DNA of 64,000 nt from a virus (Duplodnaviria > Heunggongvirae > Uroviricota > Caudoviricetes). The stretch covers positions 194,831 through 258,830 of IMG/VR virus record IMGVR_UViG_3300042890_002891, one strand, 5' to 3'. The notes under the pieces were generated by a model. The model had not been told where the DNA came from, ran no database searches, and saw only the letters and a list, made by a program, of their open reading frames with translations. Of the stretch, positions 10,962 through 28,953 are shown one piece after another. Both the position numbers and the translations under genes were made by a program. The number at the start of each line of letters is the position of its first letter. The stretch's first letter is position 1.

Positions 10962-11530
10962 CGTCCCAGTGTGGATATTGCATCGCAGATGTGCAGTTCC
11001 AGAGCCTGAGTAGCATCAAGCCAAACATCATGTGGTGGCAACAGCTTGGCCCGAACAGTTTCATCATCAAGCCCGGTACAGTCCCGGTAGTGCTGTATCA
11101 TGCGCTTTTGTGTAAGCTCAAATTCACGCATGGTAGCAAACAATTCATGCACCTTGCCATCGCTGCCCCAGCTGAACTGGTGACTCAGGATACTGGTGTT
11201 GGGAGTAAGGATTCTACGTCCCGGGGAACCTGCTAGAAATATCAAGAGTCCTGCACTGGCAATCTGTCCCAGTCCCACTGTTTTGACCGCAATAGCACTG
11301 CTGCGCATGACATCAATTAGTGCAAAGGCAGCACTCATGTCTCCACCTTCTGAGCAGATCATCAGCAGGAGTTCTTTGCGCTTTTTCTTGACCACATAGT
11401 TTTCATGCAGAATCCACTCTATCACTGGTTTGATACTGTCATGGTCTATTTCACCCATGAGTACCAGCATGCCTGAGTCGGCCAGCCGTTGGGTGTGTGA
11501 TTGATCTAGATTTTCAGTTTCTGTGGCCAT
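10958..11530 (-). CDS. second ClpP-like protease subunit (ClpP2)
   Basis: 190 aa; GQIASAG (Ser), ILSHQFS (His) and PPHDVWLDA (Asp) align with the clpP triad; divergent from ClpP1. Confidence 0.65.
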   Translation of the reverse strand: MATETENLDQSHTQRLADSGMLVLMGEIDHDSIKPVIEWILHENYVVKKKRKELLLMICSEGGDMSAAFALIDVMRSSAIAVKTVGLGQIASAGLLIFLAGSPGRRILTPNTSILSHQFSWGSDGKVHELFATMREFELTQKRMIQHYRDCTGLDDETVRAKLLPPHDVWLDATQALELHICDAISTLGR

Positions 11531-14943: not shown

Positions 14944-15147
14944 ATGTTTACAAAAATCAAACAATTCTTTCTGGGCAAACCTGCTCCAGAAGCCCAGGCA
15001 CCGTACAAGATAGAAGCACCATGGACACACGCCGAAGTTGCACCAGTCACTGCGCCAATAGTTGCTGAACCAGCGGCTGCAAAGAAAGCTGCTCCCAAGC
15101 CCAAAAAGCCAGCTGCAAAAAAGCCTGCTGCCAAAAAGCCAGTCTAA
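14944..15147 (+). CDS. small histone H1-like protein with KPAAKK repeats (68 aa)
   Basis: Start at the ATG after AGGAGAACTT; C-terminal AAKKAAPKPKKPAAKKPAAKKPV. Confidence 0.5.
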   Translation: MFTKIKQFFLGKPAPEAQAPYKIEAPWTHAEVAPVTAPIVAEPAAAKKAAPKPKKPAAKKPAAKKPV

Positions 15148-15164
15148 TTATCAACTGAACTTTT

Positions 15165-15186
15165 GATAACCCCGCAAGGGGTTATC
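15165..15186. terminator. stem-loop GATAACCCC-GCAA-GGGGTTATC between convergent genes (no clear U-tract)
   Basis: Perfect 9 bp stem with a GCAA tetraloop. Confidence 0.4.
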
Positions 15187-16083
15187 TCACGATTGTACCG
15201 TGGGTGTGTTGATCTTGTCCCACTTGTCCACCATGGCATTTTTGAGTGCAACAGTGGTTGGGAATTTGTTCTTACGCATGTAGTTGTTGATCTTGACTGC
15301 TGTGGGATAGTCTGAACTGTTGGGCTTGCGAGCATTGCCCATGTCCACTCCCAGTCCGCTATCCTCATCAGGATATCTTGATCCATAGTACACCAGATCA
15401 TGTCGTAGTTTTTCTGCACGTGGAGACAATTCTGACTTGTTGTTTTTGTAGATCAGTTCCAGCCACGGTTCCAGATACATAGTTGGTGGCCTGCTGGGTG
15501 TAACACCCCTGGGTTGTGCGCCCTTGAGTACGGCCGCTGCTGAGGCTGGGCTCACCGTCTTGCGTGTGTCTTGCAGACGCCAGGCAGTTTCGTCTGTGTA
15601 AAAATACGCAGGGATACCACGCTTCTTTGCAGCAATCAACACTGTTCTGGCTTCAGGGCTGCGATATTCACTTTGTTCTTTCAGCAGCACATGTACCGCT
15701 GTCACACCTTCAATTGAGATTTCGGGCTCACGACTAAACACACGGTCTTCGCTTTCGCGACTTCTAGCACCGTCGCTGTGCAACCACGCACGTTCCCAGT
15801 AGTCCATAGGTCGAGTCTTGTAGTTGCGATTCAACCAGGTGCCGTCGATCACAAACATCACACCGCCTGTGCCAACATATCTATGATAGTCGCCCACTCG
15901 ACTGCGTGTGGTACTTAAAAAATAAAGATATCCCGGGGGAGCATACATTTCTTCACTCTTGTTGCCGGTCACGCTGCTGAGTTGAAATACACCGCTGGTG
16001 AGTATTTTGGCTGCTGCACCTATACCTGCATAATGGTACACCACTGCGGTGGCTGCTTCTGCTAGGAATTCTTGTGCTCTCAT
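15187..16083 (-). CDS. putative capsid-targeted internal protein (298 aa) with T4 CTS-like N-terminus MRAQEFLAEA
   Basis: The N-terminal decapeptide resembles the T4 IP capsid targeting sequence MKTYQEFIAEA, including an LxE cleavage context; the rest is novel. Confidence 0.5.
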   Translation of the reverse strand: MRAQEFLAEAATAVVYHYAGIGAAAKILTSGVFQLSSVTGNKSEEMYAPPGYLYFLSTTRSRVGDYHRYVGTGGVMFVIDGTWLNRNYKTRPMDYWERAWLHSDGARSRESEDRVFSREPEISIEGVTAVHVLLKEQSEYRSPEARTVLIAAKKRGIPAYFYTDETAWRLQDTRKTVSPASAAAVLKGAQPRGVTPSRPPTMYLEPWLELIYKNNKSELSPRAEKLRHDLVYYGSRYPDEDSGLGVDMGNARKPNSSDYPTAVKINNYMRKNKFPTTVALKNAMVDKWDKINTPTVQS

Positions 16084-16724
16084 GTGTACACCAAACTGTC
16101 TATGCGTTTGTAACGAATATTAAACGCATTCATCAACAATTCAACTTCTCGTAAACATTGATCTCTAGCACCGCCTACCAGGTAAGCACCACTAAATCGT
16201 TTTAATTGTGCCACACTAGTCCAGTTTACTGTCAGAGGTTCATCATTTAATTCTTCCATAGCACCCTGGATCAAGGACTGCTGTGGCGTGCGTTTGTTGA
16301 ATGGAGGAAACTGCAATTCTCTGCTGTCGCTTTTGTGTTGTTGATATAACTCACGTATGGTAGCAATAATAGTAGCCGGTTCTATACCAGCATCCATCCA
16401 TCCACGGAAGTATCCATAGCCTTTGTCCACTATTTGAAAGCGGCTCCAGTTAATGGGATTAACATCAGGGTTGTTGTCGTACCAGTCTGGATCAATGGTA
16501 TCTTCCCAGTATGTTTGAATCGCAGCCACAGTATCACCACTGAGTCCTTGATCTTCTGCATTGACAAACATCAACACAGGGCCAGTTTGCTTGTTGACAA
16601 AGTTTATAATTTGCGGAAAAACAGCACTTTCATCCCCATCATGCATGCCTGAATACTCGGGTTGCACATCCACTACAATAACTGGATGTGCGGTACCTTC
16701 ATTAAGAAATTCGTTTGCTCTCAT
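16080..16724 (-). CDS. putative capsid-targeted internal protein (214 aa) with N-terminus MRANEFLNEG
   Basis: Start at the ATG (the ORF track upstream start is TTG); shares the first 9 residues with the adjacent gene; ATGA overlap with the downstream gene. Confidence 0.5.
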   Translation of the reverse strand: MRANEFLNEGTAHPVIVVDVQPEYSGMHDGDESAVFPQIINFVNKQTGPVLMFVNAEDQGLSGDTVAAIQTYWEDTIDPDWYDNNPDVNPINWSRFQIVDKGYGYFRGWMDAGIEPATIIATIRELYQQHKSDSRELQFPPFNKRTPQQSLIQGAMEELNDEPLTVNWTSVAQLKRFSGAYLVGGARDQCLREVELLMNAFNIRYKRIDSLVYT

Positions 16725-16764
16725 AGAGCTATTTAGCTGCAAAATCGCTAAACAATACTCAATT

Positions 16765-17475
16765 TCAACTCCAGTACTTGCTGTTGTCTAGGCTGTCCCA
16801 GTATTGTTTGTTGTTGCGATTCACAAAGTTTTTCACAAGGTACTTGGCCATGCCCATGTAGCCCATCTTTTTGAATCTACGACTATCCTGTCCAAGGTGG
16901 TGTCGGATGATTCTAAACTTTCGAGGGCTGTATTTTCTGGACAAAAAGTAATCTTCGCTGGTGGAAAAGTTTTCAGGGAAACCGCCATATTCTTCAAACC
17001 GATCTCTACGTGTGAGCATGAACGCTCCAACTGCAAAAGGAGAGAAATATTTCAGCGCATGATTTATGGTGTTGAACACAACAAATCCTGCTTTTGCTCT
17101 AAGGTCTTGATCATAACACTTGATGTTCAGACCCACAAGATCCAGGTTCATAGATTCAATTTTATCCACAGCATCACGGATCACATCGTATTTGAAAAAA
17201 CGCACATCAGCATCAATGAACAAGATGTATGGGGTAGTGGCTAGTCGTGCTCCGTTGTTCTTGGCCATAGACACAGGACCGCCGTCGATTATTTCAACAT
17301 TCAATTCCCAACTGTTGTCCTGTATAACTTGTCTAGTTGTATCAGTTGAACAGTCAGCAATGATAACTCTAGTATCACCTATGTTCTGTGCTCGCAAAGC
17401 ATCTAGCAAATGATGAATATATGCCTCTTCATTCTTGCAAGGCACTACTATAGTGATTTTGTCACTGATTTTCAT
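16765..17475 (-). CDS. family 2 glycosyltransferase (GT-A fold)
   Basis: IVVPCKNEE N-terminal Rossmann-like start and a DAD (DxD) motif. Confidence 0.7.
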   Translation of the reverse strand: MKISDKITIVVPCKNEEAYIHHLLDALRAQNIGDTRVIIADCSTDTTRQVIQDNSWELNVEIIDGGPVSMAKNNGARLATTPYILFIDADVRFFKYDVIRDAVDKIESMNLDLVGLNIKCYDQDLRAKAGFVVFNTINHALKYFSPFAVGAFMLTRRDRFEEYGGFPENFSTSEDYFLSRKYSPRKFRIIRHHLGQDSRRFKKMGYMGMAKYLVKNFVNRNNKQYWDSLDNSKYWS

Positions 17476-18226
17476 GGTCTGTCTCCCGGGTCCAAGTAAC
17501 TATTTCCCATGCACCATCATGATGTTCTACCAGGGCTGTGCATGATTCAACCCAGTCGCCATCATTCATGTATGTAACTCCGTTGATCTCTTTGATCTCT
17601 GCGTGGTGTATGTGTCCACAGATGACTCCATCAAAGCCACGCTTCTTGCAGTAGCCTGCTAGATTTTCTTCAAACTTGAACATGAAGTCTACTGCTTTTT
17701 TGACCTTGTGCTTAAGAAACTTGCTAAGGCTAAAGTACCCAAAACCCATACGGCGACGTATCCAATTGAACTTGCTGTTGACAGAAAGAATGATATCATA
17801 TGCTCGATCTCCAAGAAATGCTATCCAGGGCGCCAGTCTGGTGATGCCATCAAACAAGTCACCATGCACCACCAGATAATGATTGCCATCTGCACCTATG
17901 TGTTCTATCTGATTGTGTATTTCAACATGTCCGAAACTAAATCCATATGGTATCATGGGCCTTAGAAATTCGTCATGGTTGCCGGCCACATACACAACTC
18001 TAGTACCACGCTTGGCATGACCTAGCACTCTGCGTACCACGTTGGTATGGCTCTGTTTCCAACGCCACTTGTTTTGTTGTATGCGCCAGGCATCTATTAT
18101 GTCTCCCACAAGATACAGGGTCTCGCAGGTGTTGTTTTTTAGAAAGTTGTTGAGTTTCTCTGCTTGGCAGTCTCTGGTACCAAGATGTACATCTGAGATA
18201 AAGATACTGCGATAAGTTTTCTGCAT
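17462..18226 (-). CDS. calcineurin-like metallophosphoesterase, LpxH-like
   Basis: DVHLG, GDIIDAW, GNHDEF, GHIH motifs; C-terminal GDWVESCTALV resembles UDP-2,3-diacylglucosamine hydrolase. Confidence 0.6.
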   Translation of the reverse strand: MQKTYRSIFISDVHLGTRDCQAEKLNNFLKNNTCETLYLVGDIIDAWRIQQNKWRWKQSHTNVVRRVLGHAKRGTRVVYVAGNHDEFLRPMIPYGFSFGHVEIHNQIEHIGADGNHYLVVHGDLFDGITRLAPWIAFLGDRAYDIILSVNSKFNWIRRRMGFGYFSLSKFLKHKVKKAVDFMFKFEENLAGYCKKRGFDGVICGHIHHAEIKEINGVTYMNDGDWVESCTALVEHHDGAWEIVTWTRETDHENQ

Positions 18227-18274
18227 GGGGTATTTAAGCAGAAGTTCGCCCCAATAATGTTACAGTTGTGTTAC

Positions 18275-18433
18275 ACTATATCTGTACCAGAGTCCATCGG
18301 GCAGTAAATGCCTTGCCAGCAGCCTTGTGTTTCAGAATTTTTCGATATTCTTCTTGACGAAGTTGTTGAATCTTCTTGTCATCGTGGTCAACGCAGGCTC
18401 GGTATAATTTTGTGATCAATTTTGATTGTTTCA
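18275..18433 (-). CDS. small basic protein (52 aa), not in the ORF track
   Basis: [52 protein letters not shown]; RBS AAGGATGGG; promoter-like TTGGCA-16-TATAAA upstream. Confidence 0.3.
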
Positions 18434-18484
18434 TAAGTTGCCCATCCTTGAAAACTATTTATACCGTTAGTGAAATAATTGCCA

Positions 18485-18509
18485 ATAAAAAAGAGCCCTT
18501 GGGGCCCTT
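18485..18509 (-). terminator. rho-independent terminator after pstS
   Basis: Minus strand AAGGGCCC-CAA-GGGCTCTT followed by TTTTATT. Confidence 0.5.
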
Positions 18510-18554
18510 AGTGCTGGTTACGAGTTCCAGCCTCCGCTCAATCTTGCGGTCGGT

Positions 18555-19550
18555 TTAGTGTAGTGCCAACCGTTTCCAGTCTGCACGAATCTTGTTCTTC
18601 ACTGCTAAAGGCAATGCCACATAGTCTAGGTCATCTGCTGCTCGATCTCCACTGGCAAATGCCCAGTCAAAGAAAGCAATAGCAGTTTTGGATTTAGCAG
18701 CATCTTCGGGTTTCAAATACACTAGGATAAATGTAGCACCTGAGATGGGCCATGCTTCTTTGCCTGCTTGATTGGTTAGAATCTGAAAGTATGTTCGGTT
18801 CCAGTCAGCATTTGCGGCAGCTGCCTTGAATGATTCTTCTGTGGGTGCCACCCAGGTGCCAGCAGCGTTCTGTACATTGACCCAGTTCATCTTGGTTTGT
18901 TTTACATAAGCAAATTCAACATAGCCCAGTGTTCCTGGAAGTTGTCTAACCATGGCAGCAACACCTTCGTTGCCTTTGCCGCCTGCTCCAACTTTCCAGT
19001 TGACTGCTGTGCCTTCACCAATGGTGTCTTTGAATTCTTTAGATACCTTGCTGAGATAGTTGGTCCAGATAAATGTAGTTCCTGATCCATCTGCTCTGCG
19101 AACCACAGTGATTGCTTGGTCAGGTAATGCTAATGAGGGGTTTAGTGCCCGGATAGCAGCGTCATCCCAGCGAGTAATTTTGCCTAGAAAGATATCAGCA
19201 AGCAATGTGCCTGTGAGTTTCATTTGTCCAGGTTCGATGCCCTTGACGTTGATCACAGGAACCACGCCGCCAATTGCTGTGGGGAACTGGAATAGTCCCA
19301 GATCTTTTAGTCGATCATCTGTGAGTGGCATATCACTTGCACCAAACGTGACTGTCTTGGCTTCAATCTGTTTGATACCTGCACCTGAGCCAACTGACTG
19401 ATAGTTGATTTTGATGTTGGTCACGCGGTTGTAGTCACTAGCCCACTTTGAATACAACGGAGCCGGAAATGTTGCACCGGCTCCTGTAACTTCTTGTGCT
19501 GTTGCAGAAACTGCAACAACTGATAATAGAATAGCTAATAATTTTTTCAT
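18555..19550 (-). CDS. pstS: phosphate ABC transporter substrate-binding protein PstS
   Basis: Signal peptide. GAGATFPAPLY, SGTTF and the overall sequence match proteobacterial PstS (about 330 aa). RBS AAGGAGTCAAG. Confidence 0.9.
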   Translation of the reverse strand: MKKLLAILLSVVAVSATAQEVTGAGATFPAPLYSKWASDYNRVTNIKINYQSVGSGAGIKQIEAKTVTFGASDMPLTDDRLKDLGLFQFPTAIGGVVPVINVKGIEPGQMKLTGTLLADIFLGKITRWDDAAIRALNPSLALPDQAITVVRRADGSGTTFIWTNYLSKVSKEFKDTIGEGTAVNWKVGAGGKGNEGVAAMVRQLPGTLGYVEFAYVKQTKMNWVNVQNAAGTWVAPTEESFKAAAANADWNRTYFQILTNQAGKEAWPISGATFILVYLKPEDAAKSKTAIAFFDWAFASGDRAADDLDYVALPLAVKNKIRADWKRLALH

Positions 19551-19588
19551 CTTGACTCCTTGTTAGTACATTTATTTAATGACTAAAA

Positions 19589-19606
19589 TGTTACAATTTT
19601 GTTACA
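19589..19606 (-). promoter_or_regulatory. Pho-box-like direct repeat (TGTAACA-AAAT-TGTAACA) upstream of pstS
   Basis: Two 7 bp direct repeats at 11 bp periodicity, 39-56 nt upstream of the pstS ATG, with an AT-rich -10 region downstream. Confidence 0.4.
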
Positions 19607-19898
19607 CAATTTGCAGAATCATGCGAACCAGTCCCACCATGTCTATGCTCACCAACAGGATGTAGTTAGCCAGCATACCAAAAGATTTCCTAGTATAACT
19701 AGCCCAAGCATACATGGCACAACCAGTGATCCAGATAGGATACATGTACAACAACGGAGGGTTTGGGACGGTGATCGCCATTGTGATCGAGCAGCCAATA
19801 GACACTGCCCAAGCCACAATCTCAACTGCAAAACGCACAGGGTAAGTTTTATAGTCATCTCGTATCCAAGAAAAAATGTTGGGTAGTATATCGTTCAT
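19602..19898 (-). CDS. integral membrane protein (98 aa, about 3 TM)
   Basis: Hydrophobic helices; ATGA overlap with the upstream gene. Confidence 0.5.
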   Translation of the reverse strand: MNDILPNIFSWIRDDYKTYPVRFAVEIVAWAVSIGCSITMAITVPNPPLLYMYPIWITGCAMYAWASYTRKSFGMLANYILLVSIDMVGLVRMILQIV

Positions 19899-20932
19899 GT
19901 CTGGGCCAGTCGCTGATTGTACACCTGCTCACTGGCAAGATTCTTGCCCTTGGCCTCACACTGAATATCCCACTGATCACCAAATGTCAGGGCCCATTCA
20001 TTGCAGGCAGTGTTCCACATCATATCGCTGTGTGCCCGGAGCTTCTGCTTTTTAAAACCTGCTGCAAGTAGTCCAGCAAGATCGGGTCGAACTCGGTGAT
20101 CGTGACCCACCAAAATATCTTCACGGCTAACACTGTAGTGAAGAGCAGGACGAACACCACGCCAAGACTCAACAACCCGTTGCGCACGAGGGTCCGCAGG
20201 CGTGATGTATTCTCCGGAGTTGATCCAGTGATGGTGTATGTCCAGCACAAGAGCCACATGCTCAGCCACAAGTAAAGTAGAATCGATGCCATTTGTCATT
20301 TCGTCATTTTCGATGGAGATAAGATTCCTGGCCTCGGAACTGAGGCGACCCAAGGTCTTTAGGAATTTAGTGACACCACCTTTGCCACTTAAATGTACAT
20401 TTATCTTGAATCCCGAGTCATGCCAACTTTTTCCATAGCCCATCCAGCGGGCCATGTCTGCATGATACTCAAATTCCAGGATACTGCGTTCCACAATCAC
20501 GTCATGCTCGCTGGCCAGCACACAAAACTGTCCGGGATGGAAGCTGAGTCGCACACCCAGTCTGCGGGCAGTTTCGCCCACAGGAGCAAAGATCCGTTCA
20601 CAGTGATCTTGTATCTCTTTGCGCTGCCACCAGTCGATCCATGAAGGTTCAGTATAGCCTTGCAGCATTTCTGAACCCAGCCGTACCATTCTACGACCTT
20701 CAGGCAGGGTAGCCACTCGTTCAATCATGCGAACTGCTGCTGTGGCATTGTGATTCATTATGTCCCATTGCCGCTGTTCAGCTTCATCCTTGTGCTCTCG
20801 AAGCCAGCGCATGGTGGTTGATCGGCCGTTTAGTTCACGGTCCACAGCATTGACTTTCATGCCGCCGCATTCGGACGGATCATTGAGCCATTTGCAACAA
20901 AAACCAATTTGGGGTATAGTCATATCAATCAC
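19895..20932 (-). CDS. TIM-barrel sugar-phosphate isomerase/endonuclease superfamily protein, possibly a UvdE-like UV damage endonuclease
   Basis: 345 aa; ISIENDE and HH motifs typical of the xylose-isomerase-like/UVDE fold; the assignment is tentative. Confidence 0.4.
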   Translation of the reverse strand: MIDMTIPQIGFCCKWLNDPSECGGMKVNAVDRELNGRSTTMRWLREHKDEAEQRQWDIMNHNATAAVRMIERVATLPEGRRMVRLGSEMLQGYTEPSWIDWWQRKEIQDHCERIFAPVGETARRLGVRLSFHPGQFCVLASEHDVIVERSILEFEYHADMARWMGYGKSWHDSGFKINVHLSGKGGVTKFLKTLGRLSSEARNLISIENDEMTNGIDSTLLVAEHVALVLDIHHHWINSGEYITPADPRAQRVVESWRGVRPALHYSVSREDILVGHDHRVRPDLAGLLAAGFKKQKLRAHSDMMWNTACNEWALTFGDQWDIQCEAKGKNLASEQVYNQRLAQT

Positions 20933-21473
20933 TGTTGTTGTTCAGTAATTGTAACACATTTGGTAATAAATCTCTAGTGATATTGGAGAGTTTTTGGATA
21001 GGCTCGTCAAGATTTTTTGGATGATCCACTATCACCCACTGTTTTCCGCTGTCACGAATCGACTGCGCTAACAATCCAATATAGTTGTTTCGGCTGACCT
21101 TTGCGTTGGGTTTGGATTCCAGGTCAAACCCCACCATGATTATGACATCTGCCACACTGGCCGATAAATGAGCAGCCACAATGTCATCCACAGAATCCAC
21201 AACAAAATCAAATGCTCCGCCAAACACATTAACACGCGGCGGTTTGTGCAGAGTTTCATAAACAGTTTCTGGAATGTAAAGATTGCATACATCAGCGTAG
21301 CCTTGCTCGATCAACACCGCTGCTTGGTCGGCATCCCAGCACACCACATTGTCAGTTTGATATGCTCGTTGAGTGCGCCAGCTGCCCCAGATGGGTGCAA
21401 TGTCACGCATGGGTTGTGTGTCCTGACCCGGCGGCAACAGAGTATTTTCAGCCAACAGCCAGGCTATATTCAT
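20925..21473 (-). CDS. hypothetical protein (182 aa)
   Basis: ORF in the sugar cluster operon. Confidence 0.45.
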   Translation of the reverse strand: MNIAWLLAENTLLPPGQDTQPMRDIAPIWGSWRTQRAYQTDNVVCWDADQAAVLIEQGYADVCNLYIPETVYETLHKPPRVNVFGGAFDFVVDSVDDIVAAHLSASVADVIIMVGFDLESKPNAKVSRNNYIGLLAQSIRDSGKQWVIVDHPKNLDEPIQKLSNITRDLLPNVLQLLNNNSD

Positions 21474-22399
21474 GGCTCTCTATGCAGATCTAGAGTCACA
21501 CAATGAAAACCGCCGCCCAGCGTTCTGCTGTGACGCAGTTCTAGCGGAATAACTGTCATGCCCATGCCCTGTTCCAGAGCCTGTATCATGGCTTGTTGTT
21601 TGGCATCAACTATGACTGTATGAGGATCAATGCTCAACATGTTGAGTCCAATCCATTTTGAAGCATACGGATATTGATAGAATCCTTGTGCCACCACTTC
21701 GTCAACAAAAAATATCTCTTTGCCCTTGAGATGTCGTGGTAGATCTTTTCTATTCCGATCTAGCCTGCTGCCATTCACAACAAATTGTTCTGCATTCAAG
21801 GCCACAATAGTCGAATCAATATGCACACCAGCATAGAAGTTGCACAGTTCAATATCCACATCAGGAAACTGATTGCACAACCATTCGTATGCTGCTCGAT
21901 TGCCTGAGGCTGATTCAAGAAACAACCACTTGTGTTGTGTCACACGCAAAATATTAGCAGCGTCTAGAACCATGCCTGCAGCTCGTGGCATTGTGATAAC
22001 TTGATCTGCTGCTTGTAAAATATCATGATAACACTGTAGTTCCATATCTCTACAAGGATACATCATGGCAGGATCGACCACAATTGACCCATGCACAATT
22101 AGTCTATCACGCGGACAGTAGTTGTAGAGGCCATCGTGGACCTGAAAATTCAGTGGATCCGGACGTACTACTTCAACACCGTGTGCTGTCAACGTGTCTG
22201 CCAGCGTTTGCAGGTCTTGATTGGCTTCGTCTATGATCCATTGTGGCACAGGACCAGCAGGTAGAGGTGTTTCTTTCCAGAGTGTACGCTCTGCTTCTGA
22301 GCTAAACACCGGATCGTTGACAGGCCAGTTTGCATGACTAGCGTCGCCGACCACTATGCTCTTGAGTGTACTGTATTCATCGTGACTGAAAATTTTCAT
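21470..22399 (-). CDS. amidinotransferase-superfamily enzyme
   Basis: C-terminal GGGFHCVTLDLHR, the catalytic Cys context of the glycine/inosamine amidinotransferase and arginine deiminase fold. Confidence 0.55.
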   Translation of the reverse strand: MKIFSHDEYSTLKSIVVGDASHANWPVNDPVFSSEAERTLWKETPLPAGPVPQWIIDEANQDLQTLADTLTAHGVEVVRPDPLNFQVHDGLYNYCPRDRLIVHGSIVVDPAMMYPCRDMELQCYHDILQAADQVITMPRAAGMVLDAANILRVTQHKWLFLESASGNRAAYEWLCNQFPDVDIELCNFYAGVHIDSTIVALNAEQFVVNGSRLDRNRKDLPRHLKGKEIFFVDEVVAQGFYQYPYASKWIGLNMLSIDPHTVIVDAKQQAMIQALEQGMGMTVIPLELRHSRTLGGGFHCVTLDLHREP

Positions 22400-22917
22400 G
22401 CGGTCCCGGTTAATTGTAGAGTATAGCGATCAGTTTTGCCAACGTTGGCGGCCAGGTGTAAGAAATCATCGCGCCAGCTGACCCAATCACCAGCACGCCA
22501 ATTGGTAATAGGAGCACCGTTCATTTCCAGGTAATGCCCACTGTCCCAGTCTTCTAAGAACACAATGGTACGAACCACTGACTGTGTTGATTCAAGCCCG
22601 TGTATGAGTTTGAATCTGTTGTAGCTGTCTCTGTGTGCTGGTAATACTGTACCTGGCGACATACAATACACACTCCATCCTAGCTTGGTCCAAGGAAACT
22701 TGTCACAGATAGATTGCATCCAGACAGGCTCAGGGAAACGCATGTCATACATGTCCCCGGTAAATTTACTTTGCGTATATCCCAGCTGACGCCATTCTGC
22801 TAGACTTTCTCGATCATTGAACTGTTCGTTTATATAGACAAGCTCACGATGTTGTAGACCCCAGGTAACATCTATATGCCCCTGGACCCAGATGTTATTT
22901 TGGTCGAGTGTTGCCAT
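22396..22917 (-). CDS. cupin / Fe(II) oxygenase-like protein
   Basis: PAHRDSY (HxD) ... FLHLAANVG (distal His) arrangement. Confidence 0.4.
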   Translation of the reverse strand: MATLDQNNIWVQGHIDVTWGLQHRELVYINEQFNDRESLAEWRQLGYTQSKFTGDMYDMRFPEPVWMQSICDKFPWTKLGWSVYCMSPGTVLPAHRDSYNRFKLIHGLESTQSVVRTIVFLEDWDSGHYLEMNGAPITNWRAGDWVSWRDDFLHLAANVGKTDRYTLQLTGTA

Positions 22918-24133
22918 AGTGAACGACTTCGTACTCCGCAGTTGAAGTCAGTTTGCGCCAAGGATCAACAATAATGCTGCCCGGTTTGATAGCACAGTAG
23001 GGTTGGGTATCCAATTGGTCGCCAGTGTATTCATACGTGATTTTGCGATTGTGTGCCCAAAGAAACACCGCAGGGTAATCCACACTGTCAACCACGTGGG
23101 TTCGATCATCTGCAAGAGGATCAATATAGACCACTTGGTGCCCTGCTTGTTCTAGATAAAATCCAACCAGGGTACTGTAACTGCCAATGCAATAAGGAAC
23201 GTCTGGCTTGTATGCTTTGCCATGAATCACCACAGGCAGACTGTGCAATGCAGCTTGATCAATCAGGAACTGAGCCAAGTTTTTGGCTTGTATTTCTCTA
23301 GCATGCATCACAGTATCAAACAAATCGTAGCCAATGTTGTATTCTTCTGCTAACCAACGCAGAGCAATGTTATCACGTGGATGACAAGCACCTGCATCGC
23401 CCATGCCCGCTGTCATGTACTTGGGTCCCATGATACGCATGGTACTACGAGCCAAGGCATCTGTGACCACATCAACATTGATGTGTCCAATACGTAGAGC
23501 AAAGTCCTGAATCATGTTGACCAGACCAACTTTGGCACTGATGAATGTGTTGTAGAAAATTTTAATGGCTTCGCATTCGTCCCAGGTGCCAATTTCGTAG
23601 CGTGGATTGTTTGCCATAATAGTCTTGTACAGATCAATCAGTTCGCCTGCTAGAGCATTGGGGTTGCCATCTTCGGTGCCAATCATGACCATTTCTGGGT
23701 TGACCATGTCCCATTTGACCGATCCCATGGCAATTAGATAAGGGTTATACAGGAACTGATGCTGTGGATCCAGCAGTGGGAAAAACTTGCGGCGTGTGGT
23801 CCCGGGCAATACTGTACTGATCAACACAATCTTTTTTGGACTAGTTGCATATTTGTTTATGTTCTTGATAGCGTCAATCACAGCATCGTGACCAAAGTCT
23901 TTGGGTTTCATATGGCTGCTTGGAACAGATCCATCGTAACCTTCCTGGTGTGGAGTTGGCACAGCAATAAAGATCCACTCGCTTTGATTCACAAGTTCGT
24001 CTATGTCACAAACTTTCACTGAGTCACTGATTCGCGGGTAAATATCATATCCCCGTACTGTGTGCTGTTCAGCAAAAACTTCTGCACAGTCCAGGCCCAA
24101 TTTTCCAATTCCAATAAATCCAATATTCTTCAT
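22895..24133 (-). CDS. nucleotide-sugar 6-dehydrogenase (UDP-glucose/GDP-mannose dehydrogenase family)
   Basis: N-terminal MKNIGFIGIGKLG Rossmann motif and the catalytic-Cys motif GACHPRD. Confidence 0.65.
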   Translation of the reverse strand: MKNIGFIGIGKLGLDCAEVFAEQHTVRGYDIYPRISDSVKVCDIDELVNQSEWIFIAVPTPHQEGYDGSVPSSHMKPKDFGHDAVIDAIKNINKYATSPKKIVLISTVLPGTTRRKFFPLLDPQHQFLYNPYLIAMGSVKWDMVNPEMVMIGTEDGNPNALAGELIDLYKTIMANNPRYEIGTWDECEAIKIFYNTFISAKVGLVNMIQDFALRIGHINVDVVTDALARSTMRIMGPKYMTAGMGDAGACHPRDNIALRWLAEEYNIGYDLFDTVMHAREIQAKNLAQFLIDQAALHSLPVVIHGKAYKPDVPYCIGSYSTLVGFYLEQAGHQVVYIDPLADDRTHVVDSVDYPAVFLWAHNRKITYEYTGDQLDTQPYCAIKPGSIIVDPWRKLTSTAEYEVVHYGNTRPK

Positions 24134-24135
24134 AT

Positions 24136-25428
24136 ATGTCAGTTCCTTTAGATAGATTATACAACTTTTTGCATGACGTTGTCAATCATGATATAACAAT
24201 TTATCGCTTTTGGCCACATGGCTCAAAAAAACTTGAAGATCTAACGCCGTTATATTCATACGTAGATTGGTCTAAAATGATGACCAGGCCACCAACAATT
24301 TTTCATGACCAGGAGCCGCTGAATTTTTGTTATTGGAATCTAGATGATTTTGCTCGACTATGTGTGGACAAACACCAATCGAATTCTTTATATTTAGAAG
24401 ACAAATATATTGAGTACCAAAAATCACGGCACCTTAAAGGATCAATTCATACCAGTCTGTATGATTATGTTTTGCTTGTGCATTCGGAAAAAAATAGCTC
24501 AGAGGCAGATATCTACCTCCAACATGGATTCTTACCTGTGTACTACTGGAGTCATGCTGTGATTGCAGCTGATTGGTTTAGATATGCTGCGCATGATCCT
24601 GTGTTGCAATATAATACCGCCACGTTTATGCAAGATTTTTTAATATACAATCGTGCTTGGTCAGGTACTAGAGAATATAGACTAGCATTTGCTGATCAAT
24701 TGATTAAAGCAGGTTTAGTGGAATATTGCCGCACCAGTTTTGCACCTGTGGATTCAGACATGCACTATAGTCAACACAAGTTTGAGAATTCCAATTTGGC
24801 AATCACTAATGCAAATCTAGAAACAGTATTGCCTGCAAACACACATAATTCTCATGCCAGTGCCGATTACAACAATCAGGATTATGCTCAAACAGGCATG
24901 GAAATTGTGCTGGAAACCTTGTTTGATGATTCACGATTGCATCTCACAGAAAAGGCGCTGCGCCCTATTGCGTGTGGCAAACCCTTTATGCTGGTTGCCA
25001 CTACCGGTAGCTTAGAATATTTGCGCAGTTACGGATTTGAGACCTTTGGAGATCTTATTGATGAGTCTTATGATCTTGAAACAGATCCGGTGGCTAGATT
25101 GGCCGCTGTGATTCAGGAAATCACCAGGATTGCTGCCATGTGTCCAGCGGATAAAATCATACTATGGAATCAACTGCACAAAATTGCTGAGAGAAACAAG
25201 CAGAGATTTTTTTCAGCTGCCTGGCAAGCCAGCATAGTACAAGAATATGTTGACAATATGAATCAAGCCATAATTACTGTCAATCAACATTGTACCGGAA
25301 AACACTGGAAGAAATTTCAAGAACTAGATCGTATCTTGGGAATCAACGATACTCGTTCACAAAAAGAAATAGATCAGGTATTGAATTACCTAGCTCTTAA
25401 GAACAGTTCCGGACCAGTGGTCGGGTAA
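24136..25428 (+). CDS. glycosyltransferase-like protein, paralog C
   Basis: LTEKALRPIACGKPFMLVATTGSLEYLRSYGFETFGDLIDESYD aligns with paralogs A and B; its start lies 2 nt from the divergent dehydrogenase start. Confidence 0.5.
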   Translation: MSVPLDRLYNFLHDVVNHDITIYRFWPHGSKKLEDLTPLYSYVDWSKMMTRPPTIFHDQEPLNFCYWNLDDFARLCVDKHQSNSLYLEDKYIEYQKSRHLKGSIHTSLYDYVLLVHSEKNSSEADIYLQHGFLPVYYWSHAVIAADWFRYAAHDPVLQYNTATFMQDFLIYNRAWSGTREYRLAFADQLIKAGLVEYCRTSFAPVDSDMHYSQHKFENSNLAITNANLETVLPANTHNSHASADYNNQDYAQTGMEIVLETLFDDSRLHLTEKALRPIACGKPFMLVATTGSLEYLRSYGFETFGDLIDESYDLETDPVARLAAVIQEITRIAAMCPADKIILWNQLHKIAERNKQRFFSAAWQASIVQEYVDNMNQAIITVNQHCTGKHWKKFQELDRILGINDTRSQKEIDQVLNYLALKNSSGPVVG

Positions 25429-25746
25429 TGATTCGGTCTTTAGCCGTTGAATACGGGTGTTCAACTCGGTATAAAAAGTGTCCAAGTCTCCATTCCATTT
25501 GCCCTGTAAATGTTCCATGGCGTCTTCACAATACTTCCAGTTGCGTTTGCGGTATTCAACCATGAGATTGGTGTGCAGATCATGAAAGTGATTCATTGTG
25601 GGCATGTCCTGTAATGGCACATGCTCTACAAGAGCGTATGCAGTCATTGGAGATTCTTTTCCTTTGATCTCAAATGTATCCAGTTCCAGAACAATGTACT
25701 TTTCTGCGGCGGCTTGGCCAATCTCTTCTCCAAATATTATGTGCAT
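25390..25746 (-). CDS. hypothetical protein (118 aa)
   Basis: ORF convergent with paralog C. Confidence 0.4.
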   Translation of the reverse strand: MHIIFGEEIGQAAAEKYIVLELDTFEIKGKESPMTAYALVEHVPLQDMPTMNHFHDLHTNLMVEYRKRNWKYCEDAMEHLQGKWNGDLDTFYTELNTRIQRLKTESLPDHWSGTVLKS

Positions 25747-25770
25747 GTCAATTCCTTTTAAATATGTATC

Positions 25771-26574
25771 ATGAGCATGACCTTTGATTTAATTTCTGAT
25801 CTACATTTGGACACCTGGTCTGAAGAATTCAACTGGAGTGGTCAGCCCACCAGTCCTGTTTGTGTGGTAGCAGGTGACATAAGTCCAGATCCCAAAATAG
25901 TAAGAAACACACTGAAACATCTGTCAAACTGTTATGCTGCTGTGTTTTATATCGACGGCAATGATGAACACCGATACAGATATCATGAGCTAGGAGAAAG
26001 CTATCGCGATCTGGCCAGAACAATAGGCAAATTGCAGAGAGTGACTTATCTCCAGGAAAACGTGATAATAATCGACGGTGTGGCTATTCTAGGAACCAAT
26101 GGTTGGTGGGGCTACGATCTGGACACATCCATCAGTCGAGACGAGGGCAAACAACGCATGGTAGATTGGTATGAACGATTCATGCCCGGACACTCAATTG
26201 ACCCTGAAGAACTTAGCAATTGTGCCAGAGCTGACGCTGCTTATCTGATCAACAGTGTACAAAAATTACAAACGCACAACGATGTCAAAAAGATTGTGAT
26301 TGTCACGCACACAGTACCGGGTGCAAATTTGATACAACATGATATTGTACTAGCCGGTACTGTACAATTTAATCACATGGGCAATCGACTCATGAATCTA
26401 GTACGCACCAATGACACTGAGCACAAAATACATACCTGGTGTTTTGGTCACTATCACGGGGCCGTGGATCAAAATGTAAATGGGGTGAGATTTGTCAACA
26501 ACTGTCGGGGCCGAGGCGACACCCCTTACAAACAGGCACCTTATTTTCCCAAAAGAATTGTTGTAGAAACGTGA
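25771..26574 (+). CDS. calcineurin-like metallophosphoesterase
   Basis: DLHLD, GDISPD, GNDEH, VTHTVPG, GHYHG motif series. Confidence 0.6.
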   Translation: MSMTFDLISDLHLDTWSEEFNWSGQPTSPVCVVAGDISPDPKIVRNTLKHLSNCYAAVFYIDGNDEHRYRYHELGESYRDLARTIGKLQRVTYLQENVIIIDGVAILGTNGWWGYDLDTSISRDEGKQRMVDWYERFMPGHSIDPEELSNCARADAAYLINSVQKLQTHNDVKKIVIVTHTVPGANLIQHDIVLAGTVQFNHMGNRLMNLVRTNDTEHKIHTWCFGHYHGAVDQNVNGVRFVNNCRGRGDTPYKQAPYFPKRIVVET

Positions 26575-26582
26575 TCCCGAAC

Positions 26583-26891
26583 TTATTCGGCGTCAGGCTC
26601 TAGTTTGATCTGTAATGGATACTGCTGCTTTCTTGCACTTTCAGTAACCTCTACGCCTTTTTGTTCGGCGATTTCATAAGGCAACACTGCAACAATAGCT
26701 GATCCGTGCTCATGTATGCTTACAGTGAGTTCTGTGGCAGTTTCTTCAGTATAACCAAAAAATTCCACTAGACTCTCTATCACAAATTCCATGGCAGTGG
26801 TGCTGTCATTGATATAGATCACACGGTAAAGAGACGGCTCCTTGATGGCTTTTTTTGTTTTTGAAATAGTTGCTGCTTCTGCGTTTGCCAT
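26583..26891 (-). CDS. clpS: ClpS, the N-end-rule adaptor of ClpAP
   Basis: Core YRVIYINDSTTAMEFVIESLVEFFGY...ELTVSIHEHGSAIVAV matches ClpS (about 100 aa). Start at the ATG after AAGGAACAAC. Confidence 0.75.
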   Translation of the reverse strand: MANAEAATISKTKKAIKEPSLYRVIYINDSTTAMEFVIESLVEFFGYTEETATELTVSIHEHGSAIVAVLPYEIAEQKGVEVTESARKQQYPLQIKLEPDAE

Positions 26892-26945
26892 GTTGTTCCT
26901 TATGGAGTGGTGGAACAGTTCCACCACTGTATTTACACAATTATA

Positions 26946-27392
26946 TTATACTGCGTATGTGATTGCAATACTTTTAGGCTTGGCTGACTCAGGAACTTTG
27001 CGTTCCAGATACACAGTCAAGATACCATTGCTGATGCTTGCGCCGTTTACTTCCACATGCTCACTGAGTGGGAATGTTTGTTTAAAGTCGCGTTGTGAAA
27101 TACCACGATGTAGATATTCGTGAGCTTGATCTTGTTCTGTTGCTTTGGCACCAGAGATCACCAACTGACGTTTATCCAGACTGATATCAATTTCTCCTTC
27201 AGCAAATCCAGCCACAGCAACTTCAATGGTGACAGTGTCGTCGCCAGTTTTGATCACATTGTGGGGAGGATAGTTTGTAGTGGCTTGATGCTGTGTGACA
27301 CGCATAAGGTCGTCAAATAGATTATCAAATCCAATTCCAAACTTGTGAATTGCAGGAATATCGAAACTACGAAGGGTGAGAGTTTTTGTCAT
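26946..27392 (-). CDS. ibpA: small heat shock protein Hsp20 (IbpA-like)
   Basis: AIGFDNLF, YPPHNV, AVAGF, GILTV alpha-crystallin domain; about 148 aa. Confidence 0.85.
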   Translation of the reverse strand: MTKTLTLRSFDIPAIHKFGIGFDNLFDDLMRVTQHQATTNYPPHNVIKTGDDTVTIEVAVAGFAEGEIDISLDKRQLVISGAKATEQDQAHEYLHRGISQRDFKQTFPLSEHVEVNGASISNGILTVYLERKVPESAKPKSIAITYAV

Positions 27393-27475
27393 GTTTTTCT
27401 CCTATTAAGCAAGATGACTAGTGTAGACCCCACCATGGGCATCTACCGCAGTATTTATTATACTACAGATCAGAA

Positions 27476-27736
27476 TTATATTTTGTTATTTAGGTCAGAT
27501 ATCAGTCGGTAATTTGTCCAGCTTGGGTACTTTGGGTCCAAGACCCAGGTCAGCCCAAACAATGTGTAATACTCGTCCAAATCAAAAGTTACTCGTAACT
27601 TGCATTTGATTATTTTTGTCTTGTACTCGACGTTGTACTTGTTTGCCCAGGTGGCCAGTTTTTTAGAAACTGTGCCCACTGCATGTGCTGCTGTCTGACC
27701 GCCACCATCCTTTGACCATGCAAATTCAATGTACAT
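27476..27736 (-). CDS. hypothetical protein (86 aa)
   Basis: ORF directly downstream of clpX. Confidence 0.4.
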   Translation of the reverse strand: MYIEFAWSKDGGGQTAAHAVGTVSKKLATWANKYNVEYKTKIIKCKLRVTFDLDEYYTLFGLTWVLDPKYPSWTNYRLISDLNNKI

Positions 27737-27737
27737 T

Positions 27738-28949
27738 TTAGCTGTTTACAACCCGGAGTTCCTCGGGTTCTGCCACCTGATCCGTGTCAATTGACAGCAC
27801 AGCAATGCCTTGCTGGCGGTATTGTGCAAGATGAAACATGTGCGGCAACAGCACACGTTCTAGTTCGCTGTGCAGACCACGTGCACCAGTTTGATTGACC
27901 AAGGTGCGCTCCGCAATCTCATCCAGTGCCGCCACAGTAAACGTCAAGTCCACGCCATCTTCAGAAAATAGCCAACGATACTGATCCACATAGTTATTCT
28001 TGATCTCTGTGAGAATTCTAATCAGGTCCGCTTTGCTGAGTTGTTTCAAACTGACCCAGTTGGGAAAACGTCCAACAAATTCCGGAATCATGCCAAACTT
28101 CACCAGGTCATCTGGTGTGGTCATGTCCAGATCGGTATCAATAGATGTTTTTGCAACCTTGGCGTTAAAGCCAATGGAGGTTCCTTGCACACGATTTTTC
28201 ACTATGGTATCTAGCCCCACAAATGCGCCACCAGCAATAAACAAAATGTTGCGAGTGTCAATTTCAATCATGTCACCACCAGGATGCTTTCTGCCACCAC
28301 CTGCTGCTGGAATACGACACACAGTGCCTTCTACCATTTTTAACAGGGCCTGTTGTACACCTTCGCCTGACACATCTCTAGTGATCGACGAGCTTTCGCC
28401 CTTGCGAGCAATTTTGTCAATCTCATCCACAAACACAATACCCTGCTGTGTCTTGGCCACATCGTTGCCTGATGCAGCATACAATCTAGTGATTAGACTT
28501 TCCACATCGTCACCCACATATCCTGCTTCAGTGATACTTGTGGCATCAGCAATGGCAAATGGCACATCAAGATAACGTGCCACTGACTTGGCCAACAAAG
28601 TTTTGCCTGAGCCAGTGGGTCCTAACATCAAGATGTTGGCTTTGTCCATTTCTGGATCAGTTGTGGTCTTGCTGATGCGTTTGTAATGATTCACAATGGC
28701 CACACTGATCATGATCTTGGCAGCGTCCTGACCAATCACATACTGATCCAGATAGTTCTTCAGGATCATTGGATCTAGTTTGGCTGATGGTGGTTCGGGT
28801 GGCACAACTGGTTCGTCAGTTGACAACAGTCCCTGACAAAAATCCACGCACTCGTTGCAGATGCCTGCATACTCGCCAACAATAAGTTTACGCACGTCAT
28901 CTTTATTTTTGCCACAGAAGCTGCATGAGGAATGGGTTTCTTTGATCAT
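27738..28949 (-). CDS. clpX: ATP-dependent Clp protease ATP-binding subunit ClpX
   Basis: N-terminal C4 zinc finger CSFCGK...CNECVDFC, Walker [12 protein letters not shown]+ motifs. Start placed after the upstream stop (TAAAATAATG). Confidence 0.9.
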
Positions 28950-28953
28950 TATT

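Follow-up and report, generated by a model that had tools for sequence, protein, structure and literature searches.

A candidate four-gene module for guanidino-sugar glyco-modification conserved in a jumbo-phage clade

Results

Within the window (the whole 64,000-nucleotide stretch of DNA, from an uncultured jumbo phage, that was analysed), the conserved unit spans positions 21470-25428 and comprises genes for an NDP-sugar 6-dehydrogenase, an Fe(II)/2-oxoglutarate (2OG) oxygenase, an amidinotransferase, and a GT-B-fold glycosyltransferase. We tentatively propose that these four genes constitute a phage-specific glyco-modification module, which would make an arginine-derived guanidino (uronic) sugar and move it to a macromolecule; what is directly supported is which families the enzymes belong to, their catalytic residues, and how the genes are linked and recur. 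The original prediction had placed a single pathway on a contiguous island of roughly 10 kb (16765-26574). Its ORF limits are accurate: the GT2 ORF ends at 16765, and the stop of the second metallophosphoesterase is at 26574. Synteny of 80 related contigs showed that the island consists of a conserved core with neighbours that vary, and the conserved unit is not the full 10 kb. Nor do all the roughly ten genes belong to one pathway: PstS and UvdE have unrelated functions, and three genes (those for GT2, PstS, and the LpxH-like esterase) are accessory and vary among relatives. The idea of a sugar pathway survives for the dehydrogenase, oxygenase, amidinotransferase, and glycosyltransferase, not for the whole interval, in which PstS, a 98-aa two-helix membrane protein, and ORFs of 182 and 118 aa had been missed.

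The dehydrogenase, oxygenase, and amidinotransferase, each of which scores under curated Pfam or NCBIfam thresholds, are encoded in that order on the minus strand by overlapping ORFs (22895-24133, 22396-22917, and 21470-22399). The first operon gene specifies a 412-aa protein of the UDP-glucose/GDP-mannose dehydrogenase family, in line with the predicted UDP-sugar 6-dehydrogenase and its GACHPRD motif (residues 248-254). It matches Pfam UDPG_MGDP_dh (2e-14) and its _N counterpart (7e-14), phrog_9148 (4e-86), PDB UGDHs (2e-16), and TIGR03026 at 3e-38, below the cut-off of that model. The protein keeps GxGxxG at residue 8, K191/N195, C250, and D254, and it is 54% identical to the enzyme of Synechococcus phage Bellamy and 48% to that of Pelagibacter phage HTVC008M. 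The 173-aa oxygenase, whose gene overlaps both adjoining genes, had been called a cupin/Fe oxygenase and is supported as an Fe/2OG oxygenase of the prolyl-hydroxylase type. Its closest structural matches are protein prolyl hydroxylases, among them enzymes with viral collagen as substrate or with a role in priming glycosylation.

A perfect sigma-70-type promoter for this operon, TTGACA-18 nt-TATAAT, lies at 24156-24185 on the minus strand within the first codons of the GT-B gene, followed by AAGGA and then by the dehydrogenase ATG at 24133; it is the sole 12/12 match within 15000-28000. TATAAT stands 18-23 nt upstream of the dehydrogenase ATG in about 45 of 79 relatives, and a match of at least 10/12 was found in 29/79 relatives versus 24/400 random control windows. 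Such a promoter suggests early expression. A presumably early promoter of this type fits DNA or host-surface modification better than virion decoration.

Linkage of the four genes is tight in this phage and in 69-79 of 79 relatives, and part of the set stays together in a second phage clade. In the jumbo-phage clade, the trio is collinear in 79/79 related IMG/VR viral contigs, with the GT-B gene head-to-head with it in 69/79. Synteny extends over the entire region in this family, which makes linkage within the clade alone weak evidence; ClpS, Hsp20, and ClpX are also conserved near the module. One might suppose that the genes have nothing to do with one another and owe their proximity to family-wide synteny alone, especially as the ClpS, Hsp20, ClpX-like, and UvdE genes are conserved about as well as the sugar genes nearby. 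We regard this as very improbable: the ORFs overlap under one promoter, the oxygenase-amidinotransferase pair is again found with the dehydrogenase and glycosyltransferases in cyanophages, where the genome context is unrelated, and a non-orthologous DxD-motif protein displaces the GT-B gene at the same position.

The GT-B-fold glycosyltransferase (24136-25428, plus strand, 430 aa) represents a new family, with no Pfam family found for it, and its start codon is 2 bp from that of the dehydrogenase gene. It had been described as a GT-like paralogue of the GT2 protein; the GT-like part holds, but BLASTP between the two gave E=1.8 and the fold is GT-B. In one locus checked directly (L004), a 282-aa DUF6492 protein with an HDAD (DxD) motif occupies its place, and L005-L008 share the ~1 kb gap of L004 at that position. 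Comparison with the T4 DNA alpha- and beta-glucosyltransferases gave 9% and 8% identity, a result not reproduced by Foldseek. The GT-B enzyme could in principle glycosylate a hydroxylated base, in the manner of the T4 enzymes or of SP-15, which uses glucuronate, in which case guanidinium from the amidinotransferase would neutralise charge and block nucleases. Set against these hypermodification systems, no hydroxymethylase was seen here and palindrome avoidance is present; we consider DNA hypermodification quite improbable.

The amidinotransferase (21470-22399, minus strand, 309 aa) starts 4 nt inside the end of the oxygenase gene. Its predicted identity, with a catalytic GGGFHC at residues 295-300, was borne out by matches to StrB1 (1bwd, E=1.3e-46), AGAT (1e-21), HsvA (3e-19), SxtG (1.5e-18), and phrog_25854 (9e-18), which place it in the L-arginine-dependent StrB1/AGAT family. 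The Asp-His-Cys triad is intact, with D146, H193, and C300 aligning with AGAT D254, H303, and C407. Across relatives of 25-84% identity, the triad, R97-D98, and D195 are invariant, and R212 and S247 are at least 90% conserved. An amidinotransferase in a phage had been thought unusual. In fact, relatives occur on 204 IMG/VR stretches of the jumbo clade and 330 of the cyanophage clade, and the protein matches more than 7000 clusters built at 90% identity. Earlier annotations of the enzyme exist for Synechococcus phage S-SCSM2R (PMC12801897) and for Campylobacter phage CP220 (PMC2853527).

Similarity to StrB1 of Streptomyces griseus (PDB 1BWD), the L-arginine:inosamine-phosphate amidinotransferase, is full-length, with arginine-binding residues common to both. 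The phage enzyme is shorter (309 versus 348 aa), lacking a segment of ~23 residues between query residues 128 and 144, and its partners are an NDP-sugar dehydrogenase, a P4H-like oxygenase, and a glycosyltransferase, whereas those of StrB1 are cyclitol enzymes. Unlike StrB1 and the AGAT family, its clade is phage-only: in a search of 185,579 species genomes, every member lay on a phage-like contig. StrB1, the closest solved relative, acts in the streptidine pathway on a phosphorylated amino-cyclitol from a DegT-family aminotransferase. As in streptidine synthesis, the amidinotransferase of the cyanophage relatives is partnered by an aminotransferase-like gene of the DegT/StrS family. The module of the phage studied here has no aminotransferase to supply an amino sugar, which counts against the proposed pathway.

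All characterised relatives (AGAT, StrB1, HsvA, and SxtG) use small-molecule substrates, and the arginine-binding residues are conserved. Viral homologues have also been annotated as antibiotic-synthesis genes (PMC12801897). These points favour small-molecule metabolism, in which the amidinotransferase and oxygenase would make a free guanidino compound (guanidinoacetate, homoarginine, an amidino-polyamine, or an aminocyclitol-type antibiotic) as auxiliary metabolic or 'antibiotic' genes, with the sugar genes mere neighbours. However, the amidinotransferase is translationally coupled with the dehydrogenase, the glycosyltransferase pairing is constant in three phage lineages, the match to StrB1 (1e-46) is far closer than that to AGAT (1e-21), and no PKS/NRPS, kinase, cyclase, or other biosynthetic enzymes were found nearby. 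We judge this explanation distinctly unlikely.

Related clusters occur in other phages. S-SCSM2R-type T4-like cyanophages carry homologues of the oxygenase (29% identity) and amidinotransferase (34%), both found in 71/80 loci and adjacent in the S-SCSM2R record and most listed loci of that clade, among GT25, other glycosyltransferase genes, and the DegT/StrS-family gene. A dehydrogenase 56% identical to the jumbo-phage enzyme is present in 11/80 of these loci, directly after the amidinotransferase in the two inspected (L157 and L161). In Bellamy and HTVC008M, which have the closest isolate dehydrogenases, the gene lies in glycosyltransferase/carbamoyltransferase/NadE-like/methyltransferase clusters. 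The islands compared (S-SCSM2R ORF301-310 and ORF238-248, Bellamy gp220-228, HTVC008M gp156-164) resemble the jumbo-phage module in the oxygenase-amidinotransferase cassette, a dehydrogenase 48-56% identical, surrounding glycosyltransferases, and nearby PstS. In contrast, the jumbo-phage module is a four-gene core set of its family with a novel GT-B enzyme and without the GT25, DegT-like, radical SAM, carbamoyltransferase, and NadE-like partners. The radical-SAM/'glycine amidinotransferase' cluster of Campylobacter phages CP220/CPt10 has an amidinotransferase of 25% identity, triad kept, beside two nucleotide-diphospho-sugar-transferase-fold (GT-A-like) genes (PMC2853527); it has no dehydrogenase and carries five radical SAM genes in place of the 2OG oxygenase, as befits a host niche poor in oxygen. 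Similarity between its upstream 173-aa gene and the jumbo-phage cupin was not detectable.

The remaining genes of the interval vary more. GT2 (16765-17475, minus strand, 236 aa; Pfam Glycos_transf_2, 2e-19) is, as predicted, a GT-A-fold glycosyltransferase, with no TM segment found; it is present in only 7/82 loci (two reference phage loci and the 80 relatives; contig ends truncate many of them) and adjoins the esterase in every locus listed. Its gene overlaps by 14 nt that of the LpxH-like esterase (17462-18226, minus strand, 254 aa; 18/82 loci), which adjoins the GT-B gene in L042. This protein is a metallophosphoesterase (Pfam Metallophos, 2e-11), but the more specific LpxH assignment matched weakly (4e-12; 45.7 bits, cut-off 134). 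PstS, a periplasmic phosphate-binding protein (18555-19550, minus strand; PBP_like_2, 8e-36; phrog_5385, 2e-70; 24/82 loci), has a signal-peptide-like segment at residues 3-22 and a terminator-like hairpin at 18509-18491 by its gene; it is an auxiliary metabolic gene outside the sugar module. Also outside it is the DNA-repair enzyme UvdE (19895-20932, minus strand; Pfam UvdE, 4e-30; phrog_8420, 6e-68), previously only a possible assignment, whose significant PDB matches are all UV endonucleases (1e-15 to 1e-13) and whose distance from the amidinotransferase gene ranges from 38 to 5354 bp among relatives. The variable slot between these two holds the 182-aa protein (20925-21473, minus strand; 18/82 loci), with one hydrophobic segment (residues 97-116) and no family match in profile searches. 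No family match was found for the 118-aa neighbour of the GT-B gene (25390-25746, minus strand), which has a homologue in 76/82 loci. The second metallophosphoesterase (25771-26574, plus strand, 267 aa) is confirmed by phrog_1649 (3e-28), TIGR03729 (1e-10), and Pfam Metallophos_2 (9e-5). Found in 65/82 loci and not adjacent in a divergent subclade, this conserved neighbour may be associated with the sugar module.

With GT2 and the LpxH-like esterase as accessory genes, the modified sugar might instead be built into LPS, O-antigen, or capsule by host machinery during infection, giving superinfection exclusion or protecting the infected cell. Related cyanophage islands carry LPS-type GT25, GT10, GT11, and KdsA/KdsB with PstS adjoining, as here; the promoter suggests early expression; and the phage encodes a porin as well as PstS and therefore alters the envelope. 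We nevertheless think envelope remodelling unlikely. The module has no flippase, polymerase, polyprenyl-phosphate transferase, or TM segment, and it is invariant in 79/79 members of the phage family, an unusual constancy for a host-surface moron. In addition, the amidinotransferase clade occurs only on phage-like contigs in the 185,579 species genomes, which gives no sign of a comparable host pathway.

Discussion

For the guanidino-sugar module that we propose, we infer substrates, step order, and acceptor as follows. A host-type (sigma-70-like) promoter would drive the dehydrogenase-oxygenase-amidinotransferase operon, and the dehydrogenase would convert an NDP-hexose to an NDP-uronic acid. 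The prolyl-hydroxylase-like oxygenase would then hydroxylate or oxidise either the sugar or the acceptor, possibly creating a glycosylation site or a keto group for later amination. The StrB1-like enzyme would take the amidino group of L-arginine onto its active-site cysteine and hand it on to a primary amine on either the sugar or the acceptor, yielding guanidinium and ornithine. Finally, the soluble, divergently encoded GT-B enzyme, replaced in some relatives by the DxD-motif protein, would move the sugar onto a cytoplasmic macromolecular acceptor.

The most likely acceptor is a phage (virion) protein, a host envelope glycan or DNA being less likely. We lean toward protein because the closest structures to the oxygenase are protein prolyl hydroxylases, because no transmembrane segments were found in the module enzymes and lipid-carrier enzymes are absent, and because purified S-SCSM2R virions contain a paralogous amidinotransferase and a 2OG oxygenase (PMC12801897). 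Against this last point, the authors of that work propose carry-over, and the virion amidinotransferase is a distant paralogue (22% identity). The resemblance to hydroxylase-primed protein glycosylation (Dictyostelium Skp1 PhyA with its glycosyltransferases, collagen lysyl hydroxylase with GT25, mimivirus L230, and the PBCV-1 prolyl hydroxylase) is structural only, and we know of no amidinotransferase or uronic-acid step in those systems. The jumbo-phage module would thus be a variant of known phage glycan clusters, with a novel GT-B enzyme.

Gene content of the interval

The interval 16765-26574 is filled by twelve ORFs. The original prediction read it as one contiguous island of roughly 10 kb for making and transferring a modified sugar, and database searches upheld most of its assignments: a GT2 glycosyltransferase at 16765-17475 (Pfam, 2e-19); a cupin-type Fe oxygenase at 22396-22917; an NDP-sugar dehydrogenase at 22895-24133, proposed as a UDP-sugar 6-dehydrogenase, with GACHPRD at residues 248-254 of a 412-aa protein; an amidinotransferase at 21470-22399, with GGGFHC at residues 295-300 of a 309-aa protein and matches in profile and structure databases; and, by profile searches, a second metallophosphoesterase at 25771-26574. 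Other assignments stood only in part. The protein described as an LpxH-like pyrophosphatase (17462-18226) is a metallophosphoesterase, but it fell well short of an LpxH identity (PRK05340, 45.7 bits against a cut-off of 134; TIGR01854, 37.5 against 190), and the two esterases of the interval have only superfamily motifs in common. Likewise, the 430-aa product of 24136-25428, thought to be a paralogous GT-like protein, does have a glycosyltransferase fold, but paralogy with the GT2 enzyme is ruled out (E=1.8).

The UvdE-like protein at 19895-20932 does belong to the UvdE family (Pfam 4e-30, 105 bits against a GA of 24; TIGR00629 97 bits, under the cut-off of 124). We rejected it as a sugar-isomerase-type TIM barrel of the pathway: in the PDB, only UV endonucleases matched it significantly, and its distance to the module varies. 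A PstS gene at 18555-19550 (8e-36 and 2e-70) and a small membrane protein had been overlooked. The 430-aa, 182-aa and 118-aa proteins gave no Pfam, NCBIfam or PHROG matches.

A four-gene module conserved in jumbo-phage relatives

Eighty of the 204 IMG/VR loci found to carry an amidinotransferase 63-84% identical to that of the window were fetched, and all window proteins were mapped on them. The window is from an uncultured jumbo phage, and the IMG/VR contigs of its relatives reach 374 kb. In all 79 loci with enough flank, the dehydrogenase, oxygenase and amidinotransferase genes are collinear in that order, with median gaps of 14 and 9 bp. The gene for the 430-aa protein, a GT-B enzyme (see below), is divergent and directly beside the dehydrogenase gene in 69 of the 79, a count that takes in a divergent subclade where ClpS, Hsp20 and the second esterase cease to be neighbours. 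Counts over the 82 loci searched (80 relatives and two reference phage loci, many cut by contig ends) were 7 for the GT2 gene, 18 for the LpxH-like esterase, 24 for PstS and 18 for the 182-aa ORF. UvdE lies mostly downstream of the module (46/50) at distances of 38 to 5354 bp. A single contiguous island is thus not borne out, GT2, the LpxH-like esterase and PstS being found in few loci, but a four-gene core is (21470-25428). We newly delineate this minimal invariant module of glycosyltransferase, dehydrogenase, P4H-like oxygenase and amidinotransferase.

Two departures from this arrangement were seen. At the position of the GT-B gene, relative L004 encodes on the dehydrogenase's strand a DUF6492 protein of 282 aa that has the DxD-type motif HDAD (7320-8168 of that locus); this non-orthologous substitute may also be a transferase. 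Loci L005-L008 show the same gap of ~1 kb. In relative L042, the LpxH-like esterase (6221-6970, 85% identical) adjoins the GT-B gene and not GT2, which hints that the esterase is linked to the module.

The operon genes of the window overlap one another, dehydrogenase with oxygenase by 23 nt and oxygenase with amidinotransferase by 4 nt. The GT-B gene (24136) is read from the other strand, its start 2 bp from that of the dehydrogenase (24133). Ahead of the operon lies TTGACA-18-TATAAT (24185-24156), a perfect sigma-70 consensus and the only one in 13 kb; AAGGA and the ATG follow it, and it sits in about codons 7-17 of the GT-B gene. About 45 of the 79 relatives keep a TATAAT 18-23 nt ahead of the ATG, and the arrangement of the two genes is likewise shared by many of them.

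The amidinotransferase

The amidinotransferase matched StrB1 (inosamine-phosphate amidinotransferase, 1BWD) at 1.3e-46 in two stretches spanning residues 5-307, and other characterised members of the family at 1e-21 (AGAT), 3e-19 (HsvA) and 1.5e-18 (SxtG). StrB1 differs in having ~23 residues that are absent from the phage enzyme between query positions 128 and 144. Curated thresholds were missed: PF02274 gave 15.2 bits against a GA of 22.8, over the C-terminus only, and NCBIfam returned weak DDAH and ADI matches and nothing else. In phmmer alignments with 1jdw and 1bwd, D146, H193 and C300 align with the AGAT triad D254, H303 and C407. This triad, together with R97-D98 and D195, is invariant among 12 relatives of 25-84% identity, and R212 and S247 are at least 90% conserved among relatives; R97-D98, D195, R212 and S247 are the residues that bind the arginine donor. 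Because both the triad and the donor-binding residues are conserved, L-arginine should be the amidino donor. Our analysis corrects the current database labels 'dimethylarginine dimethylaminohydrolase', 'glycine amidinotransferase / creatine synthesis' and 'antibiotic synthesis'. Small molecules are the substrates of all characterised relatives, so a free guanidino metabolite is a possible, though unlikely, product.

The dehydrogenase and the oxygenase

The dehydrogenase carries a Rossmann motif, GIGKLG, at residue 8 and the catalytic residues K191, N195, C250 and D254, as in UDP-glucose dehydrogenases. Its N-terminal and central Pfam domains score over GA; the C-terminal Pfam domain was not reported, the alignment with 3vtf reaches residue 353, and TIGR03026 gave 131.7 bits against a cut-off of 189.8. 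It is a divergent member, with PDB matches at ~1e-16.

Searches of PDB sequences with the profiles of the oxygenase (173 aa) and of the 430-aa family gave nothing meaningful, and structure prediction was therefore needed for both. The oxygenase has the double-stranded beta-helix fold, the HxD/E...H iron triad and the basic residue for 2OG, with H95 invariant and D97, H154 and R164 conserved at 90% or more. Its AF2 model (pLDDT 84) is nearest to PKHD/prolyl-4-hydroxylase-type 2OG oxygenases (PiuC 13.1, Dictyostelium P4H 12.8, Pseudomonas P4H 12.1, PBCV-1 collagen P4H 11.4), with lower scores for the sugar-acting HygX (11.2), mimivirus lysyl hydroxylase (10.2) and AlkB (10.2).

Recurrence in other phages and in bacterial genomes

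Among phage isolates, tblastn found the amidinotransferase only in Synechococcus phage S-SCSM2R (34% identity) and in CP220-type Campylobacter phages (21-25%). For the S-SCSM2R clade, 330 related IMG/VR stretches were found and 80 fetched. Homologues of the oxygenase (29% identity) and the amidinotransferase both occur in 71 of these 80 loci; in S-SCSM2R, and in most of the listed loci, the two genes are neighbours. Around the pair in that clade are genes for GT25 and other glycosyltransferases, for a 2OG oxygenase of larger size and for a DegT/StrS-family aminotransferase-like protein; radical SAM genes are sometimes part of the cluster. In 11 of the 80 loci there is also a dehydrogenase with 56% identity to the window's enzyme, and in the two that were inspected (L157 and L161) it comes directly after the amidinotransferase. 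Only the oxygenase-amidinotransferase pair, sometimes with the dehydrogenase, is common to both clades. The conservation of this cassette across two phage clades is a new finding.

S-SCSM2R has a second, distant amidinotransferase gene that adjoins KdsA/KdsB and more 2OG oxygenases, and this second amidinotransferase and a 2OG oxygenase have been detected in purified virions (PMC12801897). In CP220, the amidinotransferase lies beside two GT-A-like genes and five radical SAM genes (PMC2853527). With hhalign, the oxygenase profile showed no similarity to CP220 gp085 or S-SCSM2R ORF267. The nearest isolate dehydrogenases are those of Bellamy (54%) and HTVC008M (48%), where the neighbours are glycosyltransferase, carbamoyltransferase, NadE-like and methyltransferase genes. 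At the nucleotide level, neither the region nor 38-62 kb had a megablast match among 50,697 deposited phage records.

In a scan of 185,579 species genomes, the amidinotransferase clade appeared on five MAG contigs only (one of 70 kb, four of 1.5-19 kb; 57-94% identical), which are probably mis-binned phage DNA. The MAGs to which these contigs were assigned carry the names Haliscomenobacter, Terrimicrobiaceae, Bacteroidetes and Legionella, possibly a hint of the host.

The GT-B protein and a possible modification of phage DNA

The predicted structure of the 430-aa protein has two Rossmann-like domains with an interdomain cleft, and tblastn against phage records found no homologue. We recognise it here as a new GT-B family. 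The best two structural matches were the T4 DNA beta- and alpha-glucosyltransferases (12.0 and 11.4), with POGLUT1 and fucosyltransferases just behind; Foldseek returned weak generic GT-B matches, with the T4 enzymes not topmost. On these models the GT-B fold is secure, but a specific kinship to the DNA glucosyltransferases is not.

The T4 matches raise the possibility that phage DNA receives from the module a (uronic) sugar with a guanidinium group. A hydroxylated base would come from the P4H-like oxygenase or from another, so far unseen, enzyme; the BGT/AGT-like GT-B enzyme would attach the dehydrogenase's product to this base, and the amidinotransferase would turn an amine of the adduct into a guanidinium. 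We consider this quite unlikely. Foldseek disagrees with the structural ranking, and no thymidylate-synthase-homologue or hydroxymethylase-type gene was found in ~83 kb (the 64 kb window and ~19 kb of relatives' flanks, about one third of the 262 kb genome). Moreover, the cassette is present in T4-like cyanophages, which are not known to have an hmC pathway. Six-base palindromes are also significantly depleted across the whole window (median O/E 0.82 versus 1.00 for non-palindromes, Mann-Whitney p=1e-8; GTGCAC, 4 observed versus 21 expected; AGCGCT, 0 versus 5.9), which suggests restriction avoidance.

Wider gene content

The window carries replication genes (RNR, ligase, DnaB-type helicase, primase), and PADLOC found no defence-system match. 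A Gram-negative porin is encoded on the minus strand at 37319-38200 (Pfam Porin_4, 8.6e-24), a sign of a Gram-negative host and of envelope remodelling. Also on the minus strand is a near-complete proteostasis set: two ClpP-like proteases (6813-7403 and 10958-11530), a ClpS adaptor (26583-26927), Hsp20 (26946-27392) and a ClpX-like AAA+ ATPase (27738-29006), the last three being syntenic with the sugar module in most relatives. Adjoining minus-strand genes for an IscA-like protein (47614-47934; Fe-S_biosyn, 2.8e-16) and IscU/NifU (47918-48340; 2e-52) form a phage-encoded Fe-S cluster assembly pair. The same strand encodes a PAAR-motif protein (40204-40491), an SPFH/Band 7 protein (31593-32396) and an FG-GAP repeat protein (3208-4488); a radical SAM protein (4426-5679) gave a weak match.

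Relative L165 has a second sugar cluster (1-4700), in DNA that corresponds to the stretch just past the right end of the window. It comprises GT8, GT17, DUF6716, two Methyltransf_24 proteins and a fusion of a nucleotidyltransferase with a mannose-6-P-isomerase-type cupin, and thus indicates a wider glycan toolkit in this phage family.

Proposed pathway and acceptor

Enzyme families and linkage together support the nucleotide-sugar/glycan pathway with an amidinotransferase that had been predicted, its substrates and acceptor being inferred. The dehydrogenase would convert an NDP-hexose to a uronic acid, the P4H-like oxygenase would hydroxylate or oxidise the sugar or the acceptor, the arginine-dependent amidinotransferase would convert an amine to a guanidinium, and the soluble glycosyltransferase would hand the sugar to the acceptor. 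In streptidine synthesis, a DegT-type aminotransferase acts before StrB1. The proposed logic is parallel, and the cyanophage version even has a DegT-like gene; unlike streptidine synthesis, however, the module of this phage is without an aminotransferase.

As the acceptor, our first choice is a virion protein, because the oxygenase neighbours are of the P4H type, a paralogue was detected in virions, and the module consists of soluble enzymes and lacks lipid-carrier machinery. We place remodelling of the host envelope second; the LPS-type GT families in the cyanophage islands and a promoter that looks early are consistent with it.

Significance

Sugar clusters are common in aquatic phages and, to our knowledge, the product or target is known for almost none. 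Published work already describes sugar islands in phages and phage genes annotated as 'amidinotransferase' (PMC2853527, PMC12801897), so such a gene is less unusual than first supposed. Viral creatine-pathway genes, with this enzyme not among them, are listed as auxiliary metabolic genes (PMC11360552). The module offers a tractable entry point because it has four genes, is invariant in an abundant jumbo-phage family and has a two-gene cassette in common with T4-like cyanophages.

If the amidinotransferase acts on a sugar or macromolecule, the AGAT/StrB1 fold would have a biochemical use that is new, and there would also be a new kind of cationic viral decoration, whether of virions, host surface or DNA. 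Were DNA the target, it would be the first arginine-derived guanidino DNA hypermodification, in a very abundant environmental jumbo-phage family. Possible consequences of such a decoration include shifts in host range, evasion of defence, and an arginine and nitrogen cost of infection.
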